Positions 2,988 through 27,515 of a stretch of 28,424 nucleotides of DNA are shown here, piece by piece (position 1 is the first letter of the stretch; each line of letters opens with the position of its first letter). Below the pieces are notes generated by a model. It was not told the DNA's origin. It saw only the letters and a program-made list of their open reading frames with translations, and searched no databases. The position numbers were made by a program, and so were the translations under genes. Source of the DNA: a virus; UHGV virus genome UHGV-0364842; one strand, 5' to 3'.

Positions 2988-3059
2988 CAATCCTCGCACT
3001 GACGGGGATTTCTTTTATCTGAGCTCGCTACGGCGAGTTTTGTTTTATGGAGACAAGAA

Positions 3060-3404
3060 ATGTCAGATTTGGCTATGAAAGTTTTGAAATGGCAATCGAC
3101 TGGCGATGTCGGCATCAGTAGCGCAACTCTTGCCTCAATCGCATGTGGACTGAAAAAGAATATCTATGGTCATCACTTTGGAGCTCCCCATGACGCAGCC
3201 GATTTCCGACGATGCGTTGCACTTGTTGAGCAGATCCCAGAAATCAGAGATTCATTCGACAAGGTTGCAAAGCGCGTTCCGGCATTCAAAGGCATCCTCA
3301 ACGAATGGGATTCCCTCGTTGCTCTGTTGAAATCTGAAATGAAGATACACGGAAACAAAGCACCAGAGACTTACAGAAGAATTAGCGAGTTACGCAAGGA
3401 CTAA
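3060..3404 (+). CDS. hypothetical phage protein
   Basis: 114-aa ORF with a GGAGA RBS; no recognisable domain. Confidence 0.45.
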   Translation: MSDLAMKVLKWQSTGDVGISSATLASIACGLKKNIYGHHFGAPHDAADFRRCVALVEQIPEIRDSFDKVAKRVPAFKGILNEWDSLVALLKSEMKIHGNKAPETYRRISELRKD

Positions 3405-3462
3405 CCACAGCCTCACACTCGATGAGGTCTGTTCATTGCTCAATGATATCCAGACTTACCAT

Positions 3463-3488
3463 CGCCGCATCAATGCGGTTTTTTATTG
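3463..3488 (+). terminator. candidate rho-independent terminator (short stem)
   Basis: CCGCA-tcaa-TGCGG hairpin followed by TTTTTTATT; lies between the accessory genes and xis. Confidence 0.35.
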
Positions 3489-3529
3489 CCTGATTTGCAG
3501 GTTCGATTCCCTATTCGGAGATAGCACTC

Positions 3530-3730
3530 ATGCAACACGAACTACAGCCTGATTCACTGGTTGATTTGAAATTCATCATGGCCGATACTGGCTTCGGTAA
3601 AACCTTCATCTACGACCGGATTAAGTCCGGCGACCTGCCAAAAGCCAAAGTTATCCACGGGCGAGCAAGATGGTTATATCGTGACCATTGTGAATTCAAA
3701 AATAAGCTCTTAAGCCGCGCCAATGGGTAA
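3530..3730 (+). CDS. xis: AlpA-family excisionase / DNA-binding regulator
   Basis: 66 aa; FIMADTGFGKTFIYDRIKSGDLPKAKVIHGRARWLYRD resembles AlpA/Xis-type helix-turn-helix proteins; immediately upstream of the integrase. Confidence 0.7.
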   Translation: MQHELQPDSLVDLKFIMADTGFGKTFIYDRIKSGDLPKAKVIHGRARWLYRDHCEFKNKLLSRANG

Positions 3731-3979
3731 AATAGCGGGTAAAATATTTCTCACATCTAAAAAATACCATTCCAATCAATCCCCTGCTGTCTCAAGTAGA
3801 TGTCTGCAGGGGACACCATTTATCAGTTCGCTCCCATCCGTACCAGTCCGCAAAATCCCCTGAATATCAAGCCTTCCGTAGATTCACGGTTCGTCATGGT
3901 TCGCGTCAGATCGTTGACAGCCGCACACCATGACGGGTAAAAAGTGGATAAAATAATTTTACCCACCGGATTTTTACCC
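3722..3979. other. candidate attP / integrase arm-site region (GGGTAAAA direct and inverted repeats)
   Basis: GGGTAAAAT at 3725-3733 and 3737-3745, GGGTAAAAA at 3935-3943, inverted TTTTACCC at 3957-3964 and 3972-3979; an 8-bp inverted repeat TCCCCTGC...GCAGGGGA lies between them. Confidence 0.3.
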
Positions 3980-5125
3980 ATGCTCACCGTTAAGCAGATT
4001 GAAGCAGCAAAGCCGAAAGAAAAACCATACCGCCTACTCGATGGTAATGGCCTGTACCTTTATGTCCCTGTGTCAGGGAAAAAGGTATGGCAGCTTCGCT
4101 ACAAGATTGACGGTAAGGAGAAAATCCTGACCGTAGGAAAATATCCGCTAATGACTTTGCAGGAAGCAAGAGATAAAGCATGGACCGCGAGGAAAGACAT
4201 CTCGGTTGGCATCGATCCGGTAAAAGCGAAAAAGGCTTCGTCTAACAACAATTCCTTTAGTGCGATTTACAAGGAATGGTACGAGCACAAGAAGCAAGTC
4301 TGGTCAGTAGGCTATGCAAATGAACTTGCAAAAATGTTTGATGACGACATTTTACCTATCATCGGCGGCCTTGAAATTCAGGATATTGAGCCGATGCAAC
4401 TGCTGGAAGTAATCCGCAGATTTGAAGATCGCGGTGCAATGGAGCGAGCAAATAAAGCCCGCAGAAGATGCGGCGAGGTTTTCCGTTACGCTATTGTCAC
4501 TGGTAGGGCTAAATATAACCCGGCACCTGACCTTGCTGACGCCATGAAGGGATACCGCAAGAAAAACTTCCCGTTTCTTCCTGCAGACCAGATCCCGGCA
4601 TTTAACAAAGCACTGGCAACATTTTCAGGAAGCATCGTATCGCTCATTGCGACCAAGGTTTTACGCTATACAGCCCTCAGAACAAAAGAGCTTCGTTCCA
4701 TGCTATGGAAGAACGTCGATTTTGAAAACAGGATTATCACCATCGACGCCAGTGTGATGAAGGGACGCAAAATTCATGTAGTTCCTATGTCAGACCAGGT
4801 AGTTGAACTTCTCACTACGCTAAGCTCAATCACCAAACCAGTATCAGAGTTTGTTTTTGCCGGGCGCAACGATAAGAAAAAGCCAATCTGCGAGAACGCG
4901 GTGCTACTTGTGATCAAACAAATCGGCTATGAGGGTCTGGAAAGCGGTCACGGATTCAGGCATGAATTCAGCACGATTATGAACGAGCACGAATGGCCTG
5001 CTGATGCTATTGAAGTGCAACTGGCACATGCCAACGGCGGATCTGTGCGCGGGATTTACAACCATGCTCAGTATCTCGATAAGCGCAGAGAAATGATGCA
5101 GTGGTGGGCTGATTGGTTAGGGTAG
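3980..5125 (+). CDS. int: tyrosine integrase, P4/IntA-like
   Basis: N-terminus MLTVKQIEAAKPKEKPYRLLDGNGLYLYV is typical of P4-type integrases; C-terminal catalytic region with the HxxR...Y pattern. An in-frame GTG at 3944 is an alternative start. Confidence 0.9.
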   Translation: MLTVKQIEAAKPKEKPYRLLDGNGLYLYVPVSGKKVWQLRYKIDGKEKILTVGKYPLMTLQEARDKAWTARKDISVGIDPVKAKKASSNNNSFSAIYKEWYEHKKQVWSVGYANELAKMFDDDILPIIGGLEIQDIEPMQLLEVIRRFEDRGAMERANKARRRCGEVFRYAIVTGRAKYNPAPDLADAMKGYRKKNFPFLPADQIPAFNKALATFSGSIVSLIATKVLRYTALRTKELRSMLWKNVDFENRIITIDASVMKGRKIHVVPMSDQVVELLTTLSSITKPVSEFVFAGRNDKKKPICENAVLLVIKQIGYEGLESGHGFRHEFSTIMNEHEWPADAIEVQLAHANGGSVRGIYNHAQYLDKRREMMQWWADWLG

Positions 5126-5214: not shown

Positions 5215-7593
5215 TTAAACAGTGTATCCAGAAAATACGTATCGCTGAGTAACTGATGCTTCTGCTTGTATCTCAATTCCAGTTGAGCTAACTACGCAGT
5301 TAACTTCAAAAGATGTTGCTGAACCGATATTCATCGCAAACGTTCCGTTATTAACTCCTGTAGTTTTAGTAACTTTCTCTCCTGTTGACTTAGTAAATTC
5401 GATCGTTGTTGCTGTTGAACTTTTTGATATCGTGAATTTTAAATTACGATCACCAGAATCGCCATTATTTATAATAATAAATCTATCTCCAGTAGCGATA
5501 TTAGTAGTGGTTGGTACCCCAACCCTAAATAATACAACTGGAGATGATGAAATTCCATCAAACCCAACACGCATAATACCAACTGAGTTCCATAAGTGAC
5601 CAAAGTCTAACTCTGTACCAGATAGTACATTCCCGGTGCATGTACACATATCTGATAACGTAGGGTTTGATGATGGATTAGTTATCCTGCATCTTGTTTT
5701 TGAATTAAACTTATTATCAGAAATGACAAGATTCATATTAGAATACCCATCATTGTTAGTGGTGTAATCAGTAAATACAGTAAGGTCGCCAAACATACCT
5801 TTGTTATTTGATATATTCAGTGTGCCAGTAAACCCGCCACCACCAGATTGACTACCTGTGTTCATTTGCACCAATCCAACTACTAACGCATCTGGCAGAT
5901 CGAAAATATTGTCCGTAACCGTAATCTGCTGACGCAAGTTGTACGGGTACAAAGAAACACGTACAAAGTTAGTGCTAGTATTAGCAGGTGAAGAGAAGTG
6001 ACAGCCGGATATAACTACGTTAGTTAGAGGTGTGCCATTCGCAACGTAGTTAAGAGTAATTAGCTCGATATCACAGTTATGAATATGCACGAACCTATTA
6101 CCATACACCAACGGACCTACTGTTGGTGATCCTACCCAATCGCGTGTTTCTGCGAACAGGAATGTACCCTTGGAGTTGGCAAGTGTAATGTCCGGGAATA
6201 GCTCCTGCATGACACTGACGTAGTTACGGCGGTAGAACCAGCGCTTGTTAGTGCTACTGTACTGATAGGCCTCTTTGATTTTATGCGGCACCATAAGGCA
6301 GGAGTTCCAGCCAATGCAGTCTTCGATAGTGATATCACTCTCTTGAACAAGGTGCGCTTTATTGTAAATGTCGTACATTTCTAGAGTAGCATTAGATCTG
6401 CATTTAACTCCTTTTTGATATCCTTTGTAATGGCTAAGTGACCAGCAAGACACTAACGCCATTGCTGTATATCCGTTAGAACCATCTGCCCAAAAATCGT
6501 CATCATTATCAATAGAGTAGTCATGTATTGAAACGTTCTTCATAGCATGGCGAATTTGTTTTTCGTAGATATTTTCGTTAACACTACCTATTTGTATAAA
6601 TGTGCCAGCCATATTATGAACTGTGAAATTTGAAATATCTATTGTCTCGTGAGGGAAGTCTCGCGTAAGAAGAATGAAATCGTAAGGACTCTCAGCGTGA
6701 AAATGCGTTAATGAAATGCTATCGCAACCATAGCTTACTTCATCTGGATTTATATTTAATGGGCCGATCGCAGTAAATATTTCAACCCGACCAGTTGTAT
6801 AGAATTTAGATGCTTTTATGGATTTTATTTTTGTTATTGATCCATCAACCACACCAACCAGCCTTGGCCTGATAGATGAAATTTCGCTGCCATGGACAAT
6901 GAAATCTTCACCATAGAAATACCCATTTGTTTTTAAATAAAAGTTATAACCGTTACCTGGGTATATATCCCCACCCCCCCAAATATTAAGGAAAGATACT
7001 GAAATATTCATATCATCAGGAAGATATACGGATTTACCCATTAGATTTAGATTGACACCGCCAAACAAAGACTCCATCTCTTCAAGAGCGGTTTTGTTTA
7101 AAGACGCTGATAGCGGTGCATTATAAACGCCACCAAATGCGGATATGTCACCGTTCATCCATGATAAATACTTATCAAGTGATGCGTTAGATACATTTTC
7201 ACCTGAATGATGAATATATGATGTCCCATTTGGTTCAACCAGTCTTTGAGCCAACTGATCAGGGTCGTATTTCAGCACATTCGGAAAATAGAACTGCTGT
7301 GCACCATACGCATCATAAACAGCCATAGAATGGCCTTGCACGGTAACGAATTTGGCAATCTGTCCGTTATATACCGGATATCCGGCAGCGTTAATGATGA
7401 TTGGTTGCGAAACAGGAACGTGAGAACCGTCTTCGTTCTCCACATAAACCTGAATCTGGTTTTCAGGATTTACCGGGTCAGTGTCAATTTTACCGATATA
7501 AATTTTTCCATTGGCTACGGCTTTAAAAGAACGCGCCATAGTGAAGAGTTGCGAAGGCATGCTTACCACAACATTGGCTGTAATGTCTGTCAT
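5215..7593 (-). CDS. tailspike protein: P22 gp9-like head-binding domain with a divergent receptor-binding domain
   Basis: The first ~115 aa closely match the recalled P22 tailspike N-terminus ([11 protein letters not shown]...VLKYDPDQ); the remaining ~680 aa are unrelated to the P22 endorhamnosidase domain. Confidence 0.9.
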
Positions 7594-8617: not shown

Positions 8618-8680
8618 GTCGTTAATTCCTATGCGTGGTTTTACGATATCGAAGCCCTGACTGTTCCCGCAGTTGGGGCT

Positions 8681-8863
8681 TCACTGTTTTATGTTCACAT
8701 CTAACATTGTTTTTCTAGAATTTAACTCTTTCCCCATCGCTTCAACGCAAAGAGATACACAACCACTACAGATAAATATCTCTGCTTTAGCGCGAATCAA
8801 CATTGCACATTCATGCTGAGGCTTTCCGCAGAAGGAGCACTTAAAGCCATCTTCTTTATTCAT
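8681..8863 (-). CDS. ClpX N-terminal zinc-binding-domain-like mini-protein
   Basis: 60 aa; CSFCGKPQHE...LI...FICSGCVSLC matches the ClpX N-domain signature (CSFCGKSQHEV...YICDECVDLC in E. coli ClpX, from memory). Start overlaps the arc stop. Confidence 0.6.
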   Translation of the reverse strand: MNKEDGFKCSFCGKPQHECAMLIRAKAEIFICSGCVSLCVEAMGKELNSRKTMLDVNIKQ

Positions 8864-9126: not shown

Positions 9127-9375
9127 ATGGCAAAGGGTGTGTCAATTTCTCCAACTACGGTAAGAATCCCTGAATCTTTACGCGAGGCTCTTGCTGTTAG
9201 AGCATCAAAAAATGGTCGCTCTGTTAACTCCGAGATCGTCATGATTTTGCAAGCCGCGATTGATGAAGATAGGTCGCCAAAGTCAGTTGAGTCATTTGCT
9301 CAGCAAGAAGCTGACAAATTCAAAGAGGCGCTGCTGGAGACGCTGAAAACCATGTATGGTAAGGATGATAAATAA
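9127..9375 (+). CDS. mnt: Mnt-like repressor (Arc/MetJ family)
   Basis: 82 aa; NGRSVNSEIVMILQAAI resembles the P22 Mnt N-terminal ribbon-helix-helix domain; divergent from arc. Confidence 0.8.
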   Translation: MAKGVSISPTTVRIPESLREALAVRASKNGRSVNSEIVMILQAAIDEDRSPKSVESFAQQEADKFKEALLETLKTMYGKDDK

Positions 9376-9911
9376 TGCTGCACACAATTCATTTCTTATG
9401 CCCCGTTAACACCGCCACTGTTGGGCAACTTCAGAACCACTGTCTCACCGCATTATCTCAAGGCGCAACTGAATTAAATATCCATATATCAAGTCAGGGA
9501 GGGGAAACTGCCGCTGGTTTTACTGCGTATAACTTTCTTAAGTCACTCCCTGTTACCGTTAGAACTCACAACATAAGCAATGTTGAATCCATAGCTAATA
9601 TCGTTTTCCTGGCTGGCTCAGAACGTTTCGCAAACCCATTATCAAGATTCCTGTTACATCCTCTATTATGGGGCTTTGCCACCCCAGCCGCCGACCATGC
9701 CAGACTGAGAGAGTACGGGAAATGCCTCGATAACGATCTTGATCGCTTCGTTGAGACGTTCAATATCGACATCGGAACCCATATTAGGTGGGCATCCCTG
9801 ATAGCAGACTCGACCATTTTGGATGCTAACAAGGCTCTTGAGCATGGCATAATTAATTCCATAAAAACTGCAAGGCTGGCATCCAATCAGGCAAACTGGT
9901 GGGTTGTTTGA
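9375..9911 (+). CDS. ClpP-family serine protease-like protein, N-terminally truncated relative to ClpP
   Basis: 178 aa; aligns with the ClpP core by eye: ISSQGG vs INSPGG; Ser in NVESIAN vs GQAASMG; His in LLHPL vs MIHQP; Asp in ADSTILD vs ERDRFLS; ALEHGIINSI vs AVEYGLVDSI. Start overlaps the mnt stop (TAATG). Confidence 0.6.
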   Translation: MLHTIHFLCPVNTATVGQLQNHCLTALSQGATELNIHISSQGGETAAGFTAYNFLKSLPVTVRTHNISNVESIANIVFLAGSERFANPLSRFLLHPLLWGFATPAADHARLREYGKCLDNDLDRFVETFNIDIGTHIRWASLIADSTILDANKALEHGIINSIKTARLASNQANWWVV

Positions 9912-9936: not shown

Positions 9937-9962
9937 AAAAAACCCACCTGACGGTGGGTTTC
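9937..9962. terminator. bidirectional rho-independent terminator
   Basis: AAAAAA-CCCACC-tgac-GGTGGG-TTT; sits between the convergent ClpP-like gene (+) and lipoprotein gene (-). Confidence 0.6.
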
Positions 9963-9967
9963 ATTTC

Positions 9968-10387
9968 TTAATCTTGCTTCGTGGAAGGTATAAGAGATGC
10001 ATTTGCCTCTTTTGGCTTCAATGTATACATCCCACCATTAAATGGATCAACAGCAAGCCAACCAATTAACCCACCAAACACAAGGTTTCCACCAATATAC
10101 CAACCATTAGCATTGGCTTTGATTGGCAGGGTAACTGGTTCGTACCCATCCTTCTCCATAGTGATCTGGTAGCTCTTTTTGCCAAAATAGCTACCATCTG
10201 ACTTGGCGAGTGTTACACCTTGTGGAGTCTTACCTTGCGCAACAATCACACCCGATTCATCTTTTACCTTAAAGCTCGCGCCAGAAGGATTGCTGTTCAC
10301 TTGCACAAGTTGCGTTTCATCACCAACAATAGTTGCGCACCCAGATAACATGATAACGCCAGCAACGACGCTAATAATCCTCTTCAT
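9968..10387 (-). CDS. lipoprotein with PEGA-like domain (candidate moron / superinfection exclusion)
   Basis: Signal peptide MKRIISVVAGVIMLSGC with an LSGC lipobox; PEGA-like segment (SNPSGASFKV...GKTPQGVTL...KDGYEPVT). An alternative start at 10399 is possible. Confidence 0.6.
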   Translation of the reverse strand: MKRIISVVAGVIMLSGCATIVGDETQLVQVNSNPSGASFKVKDESGVIVAQGKTPQGVTLAKSDGSYFGKKSYQITMEKDGYEPVTLPIKANANGWYIGGNLVFGGLIGWLAVDPFNGGMYTLKPKEANASLIPSTKQD

Positions 10388-10504
10388 ATCAATTTCCATA
10401 TTTAAAAAACCGGAAACATCCTAATGACAAAACATTCAAATGTGAAGTAGGCAAAAGATGTTTACTTTTTTCATGGTATCCTGCTCAAAACTAAGGAGGT
10501 TGGT

Positions 10505-10732
10505 GTGAAGCGATGGTTCCTCATAATTACTGTTTTCGCGATCATTTACACTATTTTCCCTGCATTAAAAGCACCAATGCAAATAATTTCACTAGCAATA
10601 ATTTCGATTGGTGCTTTCATTGCAGTAGCCGTACTTGTGTTTAAGGTTTTAAAGTTTTTAGTTTGGCTATCAAAAGATGATGGATGCAAAGTTCATCAAG
10701 AAAAAGAAGGCAAAATAACCAAAGTTGACTAA
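10505..10732 (+). CDS. small hydrophobic membrane protein (two predicted TM helices)
   Basis: GTG start after an AAGGAGG RBS; 75 aa with two hydrophobic stretches; AT-rich. Confidence 0.45.
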   Translation: MKRWFLIITVFAIIYTIFPALKAPMQIISLAIISIGAFIAVAVLVFKVLKFLVWLSKDDGCKVHQEKEGKITKVD

Positions 10733-12852
10733 CTGTCACTAGCGAGCCATGTAATAATCCCCGTGCGGGCAATGGTTTTTGCTTCATCTGTTGATAAGGT
10801 TTTCTCCCATCTCTTAAATGCCCCAGATTGCATCAGTTTCCTTTCTATTGCGCGTCTCACTTCTGCTCTGTCTACTGGTGCGTTTTGCAGGCGAAATAGC
10901 ATTGATTTAAACTCAGGAGAAGATAGCAGAGCATCAGCAGCCTTTATCCTGCTTGTTTTCCCTGACATCAATGCAGACGTTATCACCCCTGTTGCACCTA
11001 CACCAGGGAGACCAGATAAGCTTGTAATACCTTCCGCCGCAGCAGCTTTTGAGGCTATTCCATAAATTTTTGCGAGACTACCCTTTTCTTTCAGAAAGTT
11101 ATTAACTTGCTGATCCACAAGACTACTAGCATACTGCTTACCAGTATTGAGTCTATTCATAGCCTTAGCTGCTTGATAAATCGTATCAAGGCGCTTTGAT
11201 GCATCTGTGCCAATAGCATCACGGAGAGCCTTCATATTGGCCCCATTGCGTGACATTCCGTTATACCATTTTACAAATCCATCAACTCCTAATTGCTGAC
11301 CAGGTGATTTGGCATAGCTGGTAAATGCTTTATTCATTGAGGTGAGCGCAACTTCCTGCCGCATATCCTTTGGAATCGACTTCATTAATTGCCTAAAGTC
11401 GCCACCGTTTCCTTTTGCCATATTAACAACAGCACTTTCAACTTTTGGAATTGCTGATTGCTGAAGTTTTCTACCCAAGACGGTTACAGCATCATCTTCA
11501 ATGGATTTTCGTTTTTTTACCAACTCCTTACCAAGCGTCCATAATTCCCCTGCGCCATATTTTTCTGCGACAGCCTGTTGGTCATCTGTTATGGCTGCAT
11601 ATAACTTTTTAAGAACACCTGTTTCTTCATCCTTGAATGGACCAGAGCCTTTGCCAATAGCTTGTCCAACCTGCTTTCTAGCGAGATCTAAACGCCCATA
11701 CGTTGGCAAGGTGTTTGGATCAAGTCGGTTCAATGTCCGCTTCATTATTGGAGATAATTCATCAATTCCACCTATGTCATCAGCAAAATCCTCTAAAAAA
11801 TTCAATGTATTAGTTGCCTCAATCCGGTCTCTTACAGGAACCTTTTCGGCAATTTTGTTGTAGATGTTATCTGACTGATTTTGTAATGATGAAATGGTTT
11901 TATCAAAATTATCTGCAAGCCTGTCAGAAACCAGTTGCTTATCAAGGCTTCCCCCAAATGAAGTTATCATTTCATCAGCTTTTCTTCCTAATTCAGTAAT
12001 AAAACGCTTATGCGCCTCACTAATCTCTGTTCCAGGGAGACTTGCCACTGCATTATCAAGAGCCCTGACAGCAGGATTATTAGAGATCATGCCTGGAGTG
12101 GCATAATTTTCCAGTTCTAGCTCACGAATAGCATTTATCGCGTTAAAATCAGGATTAACTTCATCGGCGAAATCTTGAATAGCTCGTTGCCCGCCGATAA
12201 ATTTATTGTCCATTGCGCCAGCAGCTTTCTTTAACGTTGCTTTAGATGATTTACTACCCATCCCTACGGATGAGCGATAAATATCTCCGGCACTATTTTT
12301 AATTTTTCCTGCAATCTTCCCAAGCGCTGGACCAACAATCTCGGCTACAGGGCCAGCCACAGCGCCAATAGCAGCGCCGGAAGCAACATCGCTATTTGTT
12401 CCATTGGCTACAATAGCCCCTTCTCCAGCACCAAGCCCTGCGGCGGCAGCCAGCCTTGCCGCCCCTTTCGGAACCTGAGAAATAATCCCACCACCACTAA
12501 CAAATGGCGCTGCTTGTCCAACGAACTCACCAACATCTTGTGCGGTTGATGGTTTTGCCGCTAACTTCTGCTGTAGAGACTGAATTGCGGCTTGCTCTTC
12601 TGGTGTCATGTCCTGAAACAGGCCAACACCTTTACCAACATCCATCAATCCACTGAGAACGCCATACATAAAACGGTCGAAGCCGTTAGCATTATTAACA
12701 ACATTTTCCTGTCTGGAATTTTCCTCTAGTGAAACCAAAGGAGATTGCTGCTGTTCTGGTTGTGCATCAAGCACAAAGCCATCAGGAAGCTGTGAGTTAT
12801 CAGGCTGTTCATCCAGAACAAACCCCTCTGGTAAACCTACATTGGTTGCCAT
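10729..12852 (-). CDS. DNA ejection/transfer protein, gp16-like
   Basis: 707-aa ORF in the position of P22 gene 16 (last of the 7-20-16 ejection gene block); Ala/Gly-rich. Confidence 0.75.
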
Positions 12853-14186
12853 TGTCCGTTCCTGTAAATAATTTTCTGACCAGTTTTAGGATTTTTCGCG
12901 GTCATACCTTCTCGAAATGTTTGACCGCCAGATGTTGCTTGTTGTGTCTGTTGTTGCGCAGGCTGCTGAATATCTTCATACAGCTTGGCTTTTCTGGATT
13001 GCAATTGCTTAGTTAGTCCGCTGGGGAGAGAATCCCCATAAGTTGAAAGATAATCATCCATTTGCTGATTAAACTTTTCTCCTTCAGTATTTGCCATCAG
13101 TTTTGAGGTGTTGATTAAGTCTTGGACTTGCTCATTATTCAGCATCTTGCCGTTAGATAATTGGCTAACATAGTTACCAAGTGTGCCGAATATTCCATCA
13201 GTGCGTTTTACCTGCACTTGCTCACCTTCGCGTACCACAGATTGCGGATCCAGCGATTTCATATAGTTGAAAATCATTCCCAACTGCGCGGCAGGAGTGT
13301 TGCGCTTCCCAAGGGCTTGTAGGTTGTCAGCAGCACTGCGCATTGCAGAATAATTCTTTGAGAACCCATTAATATCACTATTCAGATCTCGAACAAGTTT
13401 TGGGTCAATCTTTCCGCTTTCCTGTTGTTTCATCCCTAATTCCTGCAACTTCAGGGCTACGTTATCATTATGCATTTGTGCCCGCTGAGCCCTGTCTAGT
13501 TGAGCGTTTTGGATATTTGCCCATCCTCTCGCGTTCTCCATGTCAGCCTGACGGATGCTTTCATCCAATCGCCCTTTCTCAAGTTGGCGACCAACCATCT
13601 TATCCTGATAATCCAGCATTTTATCCGGACCAACAGCCCCTAGCGTCATAGTAGTCAGCATGTGTGATAGCTGCTCTGGATTCTGGATACCTGTCTGAAT
13701 CATCCAGTCAGCATTCGCCCCCACGCGATTTAACCTGTCCTTGTTGTCAGTAATGAATTTACTGTAGGCTTCCGGTCCCTGAGAAAGAGCGACGTTAGCC
13801 CTCATGGCTAAATCGCCCATATCGTTGCGTTGCTGCTCATTAAGACCGGAAAACGCCTGTTGTGCCTGCGCAACAAACGCTGGATTTTCCTGGGCAAACT
13901 TAAATAGTCCCGATGGATCACCAGAAGCCCATGCATCAGCGTGAACCTTATTGAACGCACTAATCGCTTTCTGTTGCTGTTCCTGATTGTAAATATCAGC
14001 AACTCCAGCCAGACCACGTAACGCGGTCAGACCAACGTTATTTACACCTGAGCGAGCCAGTTCATTGTTTTCGCGGATCAGACCAAGCGTTGCGTTAATG
14101 TCGCTTGCCTTTGGCGCATTCTCATTTTGTGTACCGATGCCAGCCAGAAAACCACCAGAATTAATACCCTGTTGCCACGTAGCCAT
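12837..14186 (-). CDS. DNA ejection protein, gp20-like
   Basis: 449 aa; position and size match P22 gene 20 (about 471 aa). Confidence 0.75.
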
Positions 14187-26220: not shown

Positions 26221-26706
26221 TTATTTCAGTTCGTTACCAGGCATTTCTTTTAGCTCTTTCAAATGACAACGATTGAGACTAAACCACTCCCCGTGCGACC
26301 TATAGTTGTAATATTTTTGGTGCAATTTGGTTTCAAGCTCTCTATCGGCCGGAATCTTTGCAATTAGATTTAGCTTCCCACCACTCATGCGAGATATCTC
26401 TGAAATTCGTTTATTAACCCTGCGACTAAACCCTATTTTTGTTAGCCCACTATCTTCAGCATGCAGAACGTACACATATGATTTTTGCGAAGCACTGGGT
26501 GCGACTTTGTTGTAATTAATCATGTCAAACATGAAGCCTTGCTTTAGCAAAGTTTCAAAAAAGATAGAATTAACACACCCATTCCTTCTCAGCTCTGCAC
26601 TTAGCTTGTCAATTTCCTCTATGATGTCGCCAGACCCCTTTCCACTTATAAGAAAATCTTGGTACATGCGACCAATTCTTGAGGTAATTTCAACAAAGTT
26701 ATTCAT
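26221..26706 (-). CDS. T5orf172 / GIY-YIG-like domain protein
   Basis: 161 aa; C-terminal half YVYVLHAEDSGLTKIGFSRRVNKRISEI...HGEWF fits the GIY-YIG/T5orf172 pattern; N-terminal ~65 aa unassigned; AT-rich. Confidence 0.6.
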   Translation of the reverse strand: MNNFVEITSRIGRMYQDFLISGKGSGDIIEEIDKLSAELRRNGCVNSIFFETLLKQGFMFDMINYNKVAPSASQKSYVYVLHAEDSGLTKIGFSRRVNKRISEISRMSGGKLNLIAKIPADRELETKLHQKYYNYRSHGEWFSLNRCHLKELKEMPGNELK

Positions 26707-27047: not shown

Positions 27048-27515
27048 TCATCGAAGGCATTGCGTCTTGATATATTCCTGAAGCGTTCTCAGTGCTGTTT
27101 GGTCGCGGATAATTCCGTCCCGGACACCGAGAACGTTTCGTCCAGCAACTGGAGAGAGTTCGACGGTGGCATCATTGCCCATGCCGGAGGCGCCGGAGGT
27201 TTCGGCTGAGGATGGCACAGGGCATTTTCCTTTGACGAGCACCCTGCCACCATTATCAAGATTGCGCCGAAGAGCATCATTTTCAGCTTTCGCATCAGCT
27301 AACTCCTTCGTGTATTTAGCATCGAGTGCATCAGCAGCACGCTGGCGTTGCTGCATGTCAGTAATGGTGGAGGTCGCCTGCTTCAGCTCAATGACTTTTT
27401 TATCACGCTGTTCTTTGTAGGCGATGGCGTTATCACGGTAATGATTAACAGCCCATGACAGGCAGACGATGATGCAGATAACCAGAGCGGAGATAATCGC
27501 GGTTACTCTGCTCAT
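27048..27515 (-). CDS. Rz: i-spanin Rz
   Basis: N-terminus [31 protein letters not shown] matches lambda Rz from memory; the C-terminal part diverges. Confidence 0.85.
27089..27295 (-). CDS. Rz1: o-spanin Rz1, embedded in Rz in an alternate frame
   Basis: Lipoprotein signal with a VAGC lipobox, then a proline-rich segment ([11 protein letters not shown]); fully nested within Rz. Confidence 0.7.

Follow-up and report, generated by a model that had tools for sequence, protein, structure and literature searches.

Independently assorting lipoprotein and small membrane protein genes at the sieA position of a P22-like phage of Escherichia coli

The window analyzed here, the whole 28,424-nucleotide stretch of the virus genome UHGV-0364842, belongs to a P22-like (Lederbergvirus-type) temperate phage of E. 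coli and has the attP arrangement. It starts with ead/ea22-type early genes, which are followed by the integrase gene (3944-5125, plus strand) and the tailspike gene (5215-7593, minus strand). Next are ant, an ORF with a ClpX zinc finger, arc, the sar RNA, mnt, and a gene for a ClpP-like protein. The Arc-family gene mnt (9127-9375, plus strand) and the ClpP-like gene (178 aa; 9375-9911, plus strand) are coupled, as the ATG of the second overlaps the stop codon of the first, and both end at a shared terminator. Further downstream are the gene 16/20/7 ejection genes and then the head genes. The nearest of these encodes a gene 16-type ejection (DNA transfer) protein of 707 aa (10729-12852, minus strand). 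Two divergent ORFs lie between the ClpP-like gene and the gene 16 homolog. One encodes a lipoprotein on the minus strand and the other a 75-aa membrane protein on the plus strand. A preliminary description of this DNA had reported both ORFs, placed them between the immI operon and the ejection genes, and equated the site with that of sieA. The coordinates of the ORFs and of their neighbors bear this out, and in P22, too, sieA runs toward gene 16 and in the same direction as mnt. A prophage of E. coli APEC20/16 matches the 901 bp around the locus at 100% identity, and RefSeq labels its lipoprotein ORF and its 75-aa ORF alike as hypothetical protein. That a variable "ant moron" lies between genes 16 and 9 has been recognized since 2008, when sixteen genomes were seen to contain ten types of it (PMC2629481).

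The lipoprotein gene (139 aa; 9968-10387, minus strand) corresponds to gp15 of Salmonella phage epsilon34 and to phrog_6823. It is separated from the ClpP-like gene by a bidirectional intrinsic terminator (9940-9961) that has a T6 run at its 3' side on the minus strand. The fold has a free energy of -16.2 kcal/mol on the minus strand and -14.2 kcal/mol on the plus strand (z about -4.1 and -4.3). A strong terminator acting in both directions had been proposed, and with a z of about -4 on each strand it is real on both. On the plus strand it closes the operon of mnt and the ClpP-like gene, and on the minus strand it closes the lipoprotein gene. The intergenic region, earlier described as AT-rich and about 105 bp long, is a divergent spacer of exactly 105 bp (10400-10504) with 33% GC. 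The GC content is 34% in the 75-aa gene and 43% in the lipoprotein gene, compared with 46.5% in the window. Base composition thus sets the 75-aa gene apart as expected of a moron under the Juhala/Hendrix definition, while the lipoprotein gene is just slightly lower. In addition to its strong terminator, the lipoprotein gene has a sigma-70-like promoter candidate (10418-10446, minus strand; TTCACA, 17 nt, TAGGAT), which is a consensus match only (9/12). A promoter scan of the sequence returned no enrichment of promoter-like sites over shuffled sequence, so the promoter calls rest on conservation. Rfam elements were absent from the spacer, the only Rfam match being sar in immI. The 75-aa gene lacks a terminator of its own because it converges on gene 16, and it has the leader that is shared with sieA.

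The lipoprotein ORF could also start at an upstream ATG (10399), which would give 143 aa (9968-10399), and the ORF read in this way begins MEIDMKRIISVVAGVIMLSGC. The ATG at 10387 (MKRIIS...) is the likelier start, as homologs and RefSeq begin there. From this start, the N-terminus reads MKRIISVVAGVIMLSGC and contains a basic n-region, an h-region, and an LSGC lipobox (pattern used: [LVI][ASTVI][GAS]C) with the conserved Cys. Among 56 diverse homologs, C17 of the lipobox never varies and conservation of G16 is 90% or more, and the Pfam LPAM_1 model matches four members of the family. The identification of this gene product as a lipoprotein with an LSGC lipobox is therefore upheld. Lipoprotein sorting in enterobacteria is known to follow the +2 rule. 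The residue at +2 after the lipobox Cys is Ala, and by this rule the protein is predicted to be sorted to the outer membrane. An AF2 model of the protein has a β-sandwich of the transthyretin/CarboxypepD_reg type, and the mature protein runs from this β-sandwich through a Gly-rich hydrophobic helix to a β-hairpin. The most conserved stretch, NGWYIGGN..FGGLIGW..VDPFNGGMY.L.P, comprises the Gly-rich helix and the turn that follows it. The protein had been called PEGA-like, and the predicted fold agrees with this, but the sequence match is weak. PEGA (PF08308) is matched with an E-value of 0.004 and 17.5 bits, under the gathering threshold of 20.8, and just seven of the 56 family members match it at E<=0.01. 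Searches of Pfam, NCBIfam, PHROGs, and PADLOC for a function of this or the 75-aa protein returned families of "unknown function" only, and no literature was found on the accession of the lipoprotein or on PEGA lipoproteins in prophages. A role as a spanin was considered and ruled out, since Rz is located elsewhere in the window (27048-27515). Late lytic synthesis is also expected, since the lipoprotein gene points the same way as the late operon and no terminator intervenes between it and gene 16.

The family to which the lipoprotein belongs is very large, uncharacterized, and without a Pfam model. It contains 5,691 clusters at 50% identity (E<=0.001). Copies were found in 303 species genomes of Gamma-, Beta-, Delta-, and Zetaproteobacteria at 50-60% identity, a range that spans the E. 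coli phages and the copies of Halomonas, Nitrosomonas, and Mariprofundus. The family is mostly chromosomal and its context outside Enterobacterales is non-phage, whereas the copies of Enterobacterales are mostly borne by P22-like and lambdoid siphophage prophages. In P22-like prophages the gene is always 3' of the mnt or ClpP terminator, while in lambdoid siphophage prophages it occupies several positions in the tail gene cluster. No neighboring gene is common to more than 11 of 80 species loci, and gene context therefore points to no pathway. The 76 prophage copies examined, all of which are intact, comprise 50 nucleotide alleles that encode 19 protein variants. Their pN/pS of 0.044 indicates strong purifying selection, and the phage copies do not diverge at the invariant Gly-rich motif. 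The lipoprotein is thus captured bacterial cargo. The authors of the epsilon34 study had noted that gp15 matches bacterial genes of unknown function (PMC2629481). Over the lipoprotein gene and the spacer, the DNA is 96% identical to that of epsilon34 gene 15 and the sequence upstream of it, as far as the GTG with which the next gene starts. The two phages differ in what follows the leader, which is gp14 (hkcB-like, with a membrane anchor and a coiled coil) in epsilon34 and the 75-aa protein in the window, and in the ClpP-like gene that follows mnt in the window. The locus is therefore a new combination, and its lipoprotein was earlier seen in the ant moron as gp15.

An HK97-like prophage of the E. 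coli ED1a type carries a lipoprotein homolog between tail-chaperone (T) and tape-measure (H) genes that are homologous to those of HK97. This T/H slot is the exact position of HK97 gp15, and the lipoprotein homolog is thus an allelic replacement. HK97 gp15 is a proven exclusion moron (PMC3594210). It is a small membrane protein derived from YebO, and as with the lipoprotein, its gene adjoins a DNA-delivery gene (tape measure) and was captured from a bacterial family. The two proteins have no similarity by inspection, and the lipoprotein is predicted to be exported and lipid-anchored, whereas gp15 is an inner membrane helix. The replacement of the gp15 moron by the lipoprotein appears to be new, as no report of it was found in the literature searched. 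The same ED1a-type prophage (L009/L011) contains a porin gene of 387 aa (Porin_1/Porin_4; about 10261-11424) between tail genes M and L. In the prophage L010 the porin is absent, and a module of Arc, ClpP, and antirepressor genes is located just 3' of tail gene L.

It had also been pointed out that phage lipoproteins such as Cor and Llp block receptors. Like Cor, Llp, TraT, and Bor, which are phage or plasmid lipoproteins of the outer membrane that act in exclusion or serum resistance, the protein is a small lipoprotein encoded on a mobile element, has a residue other than Asp at +2, and would be made by the cell that carries it. Homology to any of these is absent, and the lipoprotein differs from them in its transthyretin/PEGA-type sandwich with a Gly-rich helix. 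The Cor models match below their cut-offs and cover the signal peptide only (phrog_1119, E 0.0015, residues 1-20; NF047972, 13.1 bits against a cut-off of 31, residues 1-30). A kinship with Cor and Llp is thus not supported.

The second gene encodes a predicted inner membrane hairpin protein of 75 aa (phrog_7294; 10505-10732, plus strand, GTG start). It is convergent with the gene 16 homolog and the two stop codons overlap by 4 nt. A strong Shine-Dalgarno sequence, AAGGAGG, is located at 10493-10499, five bases 5' of the GTG, and other alleles have ATG instead of GTG at the same position. The earlier assignment of two transmembrane segments agrees with both hydropathy and the AF2 model. Hydropathy places two hydrophobic helices at about residues 3-22 and 23-56, while AF2 places helices at 3-17 and 19-63 with a break at Pro19. 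The helices are separated by P-A-L-K-A-P and the C-terminal tail is charged. Basic residues at both ends of the protein suggest that both termini are cytoplasmic. The gene is intact in 24/24 loci, which with the 76/76 intact lipoprotein copies answers the concern that the ORFs might be broken in relatives. Variation is found only in the first helix, where it separates two classes of alleles, and the final 55 residues are nearly invariant among the 24 copies. The pN/pS of this gene is 0.62, a value that carries little information due to low divergence. The family is tiny and confined to P22-like prophages. It is found in prophages of E. coli and Salmonella, and a profile search for homologs added just one member, from Erwinia, with 32% identity.

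Known exclusion proteins were compared with the 75-aa protein. A Pfam search gave no family at E<=0.1, and we take the YebO and Imm models to be contained in Pfam. No alignment with HK97 gp15 was obtained at E<=100. Assignment of the 75-aa protein to the HK97 gp15/YebO type or to the T4 Imm type was therefore dropped for want of sequence similarity. SieA of P22 (phrog_7745) is also an inner membrane protein, and its gene has the same slot, 41-nt leader, Shine-Dalgarno sequence, and GTG start as the 75-aa gene. SieA, however, has 162-164 aa and three or four helices, whereas the 75-aa protein has two. The BLASTP E-value between the two proteins is 3.6, and phrog_7745 is not matched. The cytoplasmic SieA motif, FxRYPxEAxxFNK (PMC10883804), is absent from the 75-aa protein. 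The 75-aa protein was thus rejected as a member of the SieA family (types A-C) on similarity, motif, size (about 160-200 aa in the family), and helix count, and its lack of similarity to SieA also led to rejection of the idea that the ORF is a decayed sieA fragment.

The connection with sieA lies in the DNA upstream. The 75-aa gene is preceded by a sieA-type leader of 41 nt, acttttttcatggtatcctgctcaaaactaaggaggttggt (10464-10504, plus strand), which includes the AAGGAGG and has one mismatch to the 41 nt before P22 sieA. In P22, sieA ends 22 bp from the end of gene 16, is convergent with it and co-directional with mnt, and has its own annotated promoter. The 75-aa gene occupies this very slot, as it lies between genes 16 and 9, converges with gene 16, and follows the PsieA leader. 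The -35 region upstream of the leader in the window differs from the annotated PsieA of P22, and expression of the 75-aa gene is therefore inferred. A subset of the loci with the 75-aa gene has the full P22-type upstream region, including the annotated PsieA. Leavitt et al. found that, in P22, 85 bp of upstream DNA are enough for sieA to function in single copy, and that sieA is carried by only a third of sequenced P22-like phages (PMC10883804).

An unbiased scan with 36 nt of the leader against viral contigs recovered 75 contigs, in which the ORFs downstream of the leader fall into ten unrelated families. These are an hkcB/epsilon34 gp14-like protein with a membrane anchor and a coiled coil (19 contigs), a signal-peptide protein of 129 aa (14 contigs), the 75-aa protein and SieA (9 contigs each), a second anchor plus coiled-coil protein (8 contigs), a 62-aa two-helix protein (6 contigs), and four rarer families. 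A signal or anchor sequence opens all ten, and this makes the slot a cassette site for envelope proteins. SieA is the only characterized member of the set, and the other cassettes scanned are of "unknown function" in PHROGs or without a match. It appears that the sharing of the sieA leader with ten envelope cassettes is new, since it was not found in the literature searched. P22-like phages that lack sieA carry unrelated envelope proteins behind the same leader instead. The 41-nt leader and the GTG (10464-10507; loci L248-L322) are conserved to the base before the ten ORF families. Several cassettes also share their first codons (V-K-R-W, V-K-R-L, or V-K-K), and cassette exchange thus seems to take place inside the basic n-region of an export signal.

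The cassettes are further linked to the allele of gene 16 on which they abut. The gp16 beside the 75-aa gene is 99-100% identical in the 22/24 loci that could be scored, and this full-length 707-residue allele (99-100%) is always linked to the 75-aa gene. In the leader scan, nine of nine contigs with the 75-aa gene were in one gp16 C-terminal cluster. The identity of gp20 beside the 75-aa gene ranges over 55-100%, and that of gp7 over 82-100%. Alleles of gp16 that are 97-98% identical, with the last three codons different, adjoin other cassettes, and the 32%-identical homolog of the 75-aa protein adjoins a gp16 of 72% identity. Each cassette family is tied to one or two gp16 C-terminal clusters in the loci that could be scored. 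This near one-to-one tie appears to be new, as the literature searched held no account of it. It is notable because the mutations by which phages escape SieA lie in the C-terminal parts of both gp16 and gp20 (PMC10883804), although simple adjacency and plain linkage may account for it. Sharp mosaic boundaries are present in the ejection genes (10729-14186; loci L093-L116).

The two genes were at first described as a pair, and this part of the description failed. A count over 5,426 complete E. coli genomes gives 124 with the lipoprotein gene, 34 with the 75-aa gene, and 4 with both side by side. In P22-like viral loci, the 75-aa gene is found in 2/75 loci of the lipoprotein gene, and the lipoprotein gene in 2/24 loci of the 75-aa gene. 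At least six other gene sets are found upstream of the 75-aa gene, and the lipoprotein gene adjoins six alternative genes or none. The cassettes that have the lipoprotein gene upstream belong to five different families, and sieA is never among them. The lipoprotein and 75-aa genes thus assort independently and do not form a functional unit. In some phages (L098, L100, and L101; about 3000-4650), a minus strand pair of ORFs of 149 aa and 140-164 aa replaces the lipoprotein gene, between the ClpP-like gene (mnt in L101) and the 75-aa gene. Other substitutes for the lipoprotein gene are an HTH/S24-like ORF of 213 aa and a plus strand operon of 92-aa and 186-aa ORFs that ends in the 75-aa gene. 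The description of the locus as a moron fared better, as each gene is present or absent between conserved flanks in related phages and both products are envelope proteins. The two are real, conserved genes of the moron kind whose products are targeted to the envelope.

Our main reading, to which we assign a probability of roughly one half, is that these are two independently acquired envelope morons, the 75-aa protein being a SieA-like blocker of DNA entry and the lipoprotein an envelope-altering factor. The 75-aa gene is one of ten or more interchangeable cassettes found behind the promoter and ribosome-binding leader of sieA, next to the 3' end of gene 16. Its product is probably made in the lysogen and would form a helical hairpin in the inner membrane, its two ends facing the cytoplasm. 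There, it may block DNA delivery by incoming P22-like phages by interfering, as SieA does, with gp16, an ejection protein that inserts into the membrane, and the gp16/gp20 conduit would be the putative target. The protein would in this case be an analog and not a homolog of SieA. By analogy with SieA, blocking of DNA entry is the most likely role of the 75-aa protein. The lipoprotein would also be made in the lysogen, from its own candidate promoter and up to its strong terminator. It would be sorted to the outer membrane. The protein retains the ancestral fold and the invariant Gly-rich motif of its family and may retain the ancestral envelope activity as well. The most likely role of the lipoprotein is to change the envelope of the lysogen to the latter's benefit, either as lysogenic conversion or as a generic interference with trans-envelope phage channels and DNA delivery. 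A wider reading takes the sieA leader as the mark of an exchange slot, in which the ten-plus cassettes would all be exclusion factors matched to the C-terminal type of gp16, and in which the lipoprotein family would be a generic, repeatedly borrowed hindrance to DNA delivery. We consider this reading doubtful and offer it as speculation. If it is true, the 75-aa protein would be a minimal two-helix version and SieA the one member that has been studied.

The main rival to the SieA-like and envelope-altering roles is that neither gene concerns phages. Both would then be host-fitness (lysogenic conversion) factors unrelated to exclusion, which is possible but somewhat unlikely. The lipoprotein would keep a role in envelope maintenance (stress, detergent, or serum tolerance, as with Bor and TraT), while the 75-aa protein would modulate a host inner membrane protein. 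Much about the lipoprotein is consistent with this, since its family is ancient, mostly chromosomal, and very conserved, and its prophage copies combine the low pN/pS with an undiverged motif. Conservation in free-living Proteobacteria and the undiverged phage copies argue against a phage-specific arms race, and a cellular envelope function that has been retained explains the conservation pattern no less well than receptor blocking does. Many morons, such as bor and lom, serve the host and provide a precedent (PMC3594210). However, the 75-aa gene lies in the sieA slot behind a leader of the sieA type, and the restriction of its family to P22-like prophages speaks against a host-wide role. The lipoprotein gene, for its part, adjoins DNA-delivery genes in several phage types, and in HK97-like prophages it occupies the slot of the proven exclusion moron.

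A toxin-like role is less likely. With its small size, strong hydrophobicity, two helices, and charged tail, the 75-aa protein could be a membrane-damaging peptide, such as an abortive infection effector or a holin-like or toxin-like protein. PADLOC gave no significant match to the 75-aa protein, and the "4TM effector" model that would favor such a role was matched at an E-value of only 0.095. The leader drives constitutive and harmless expression of sieA in P22 (PMC10883804). A conserved partner antitoxin or sensor does not adjoin the gene, its upstream neighbors vary freely, and the phage already has lysis genes elsewhere. We therefore regard membrane damage as improbable. A joint role of the lipoprotein and the 75-aa protein as a single two-component exclusion system, which their adjacency and divergence from one short spacer might imply, is essentially excluded by their joint presence in only four complete E. 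coli genomes against 124 and 34 counted singly, by the 2/75 and 2/24 viral loci, and by the many alternative neighbors of each gene.

If the cassettes do exclude phages, the slot would be a source of new and very small inhibitors of DNA delivery by short-tailed phages. As each cassette is tied to one gp16 type, the set could also serve as a tool for studying the passage of the gp7/gp20/gp16 conduit through the envelope. The lipoprotein would offer the first functional handle on its very large proteobacterial family. If neither gene has a phage phenotype, the locus would be ordinary prophage cargo.

Some observations concern other parts of the window. The sar antisense RNA (8619-8685, plus strand) is a clear match to RF00262 (73.8 bits), and the immI circuit thus looks complete despite the extra Clp genes. 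One of these Clp-related genes encodes a stand-alone ClpX C4 zinc-finger protein of 60 aa (8681-8863, minus strand) between arc and ant. The product of the other, the ClpP-like protein, is close to PDB 9uxt, a "Clp protease" of 183 aa (E 4e-35). A full-text literature search found no paper on the module of Arc and ClpP-like genes. The module, with or without ant, is present in 6/75 of the P22-like loci that bear the lipoprotein gene, and it recurs in a siphophage prophage (L010), within the cluster of tail genes. Between the lysis genes and the small ORFs upstream of the terminase region is an ORF of 161 aa with a T5orf172/MUG113 domain (26221-26706, minus strand), which is likely a further moron.
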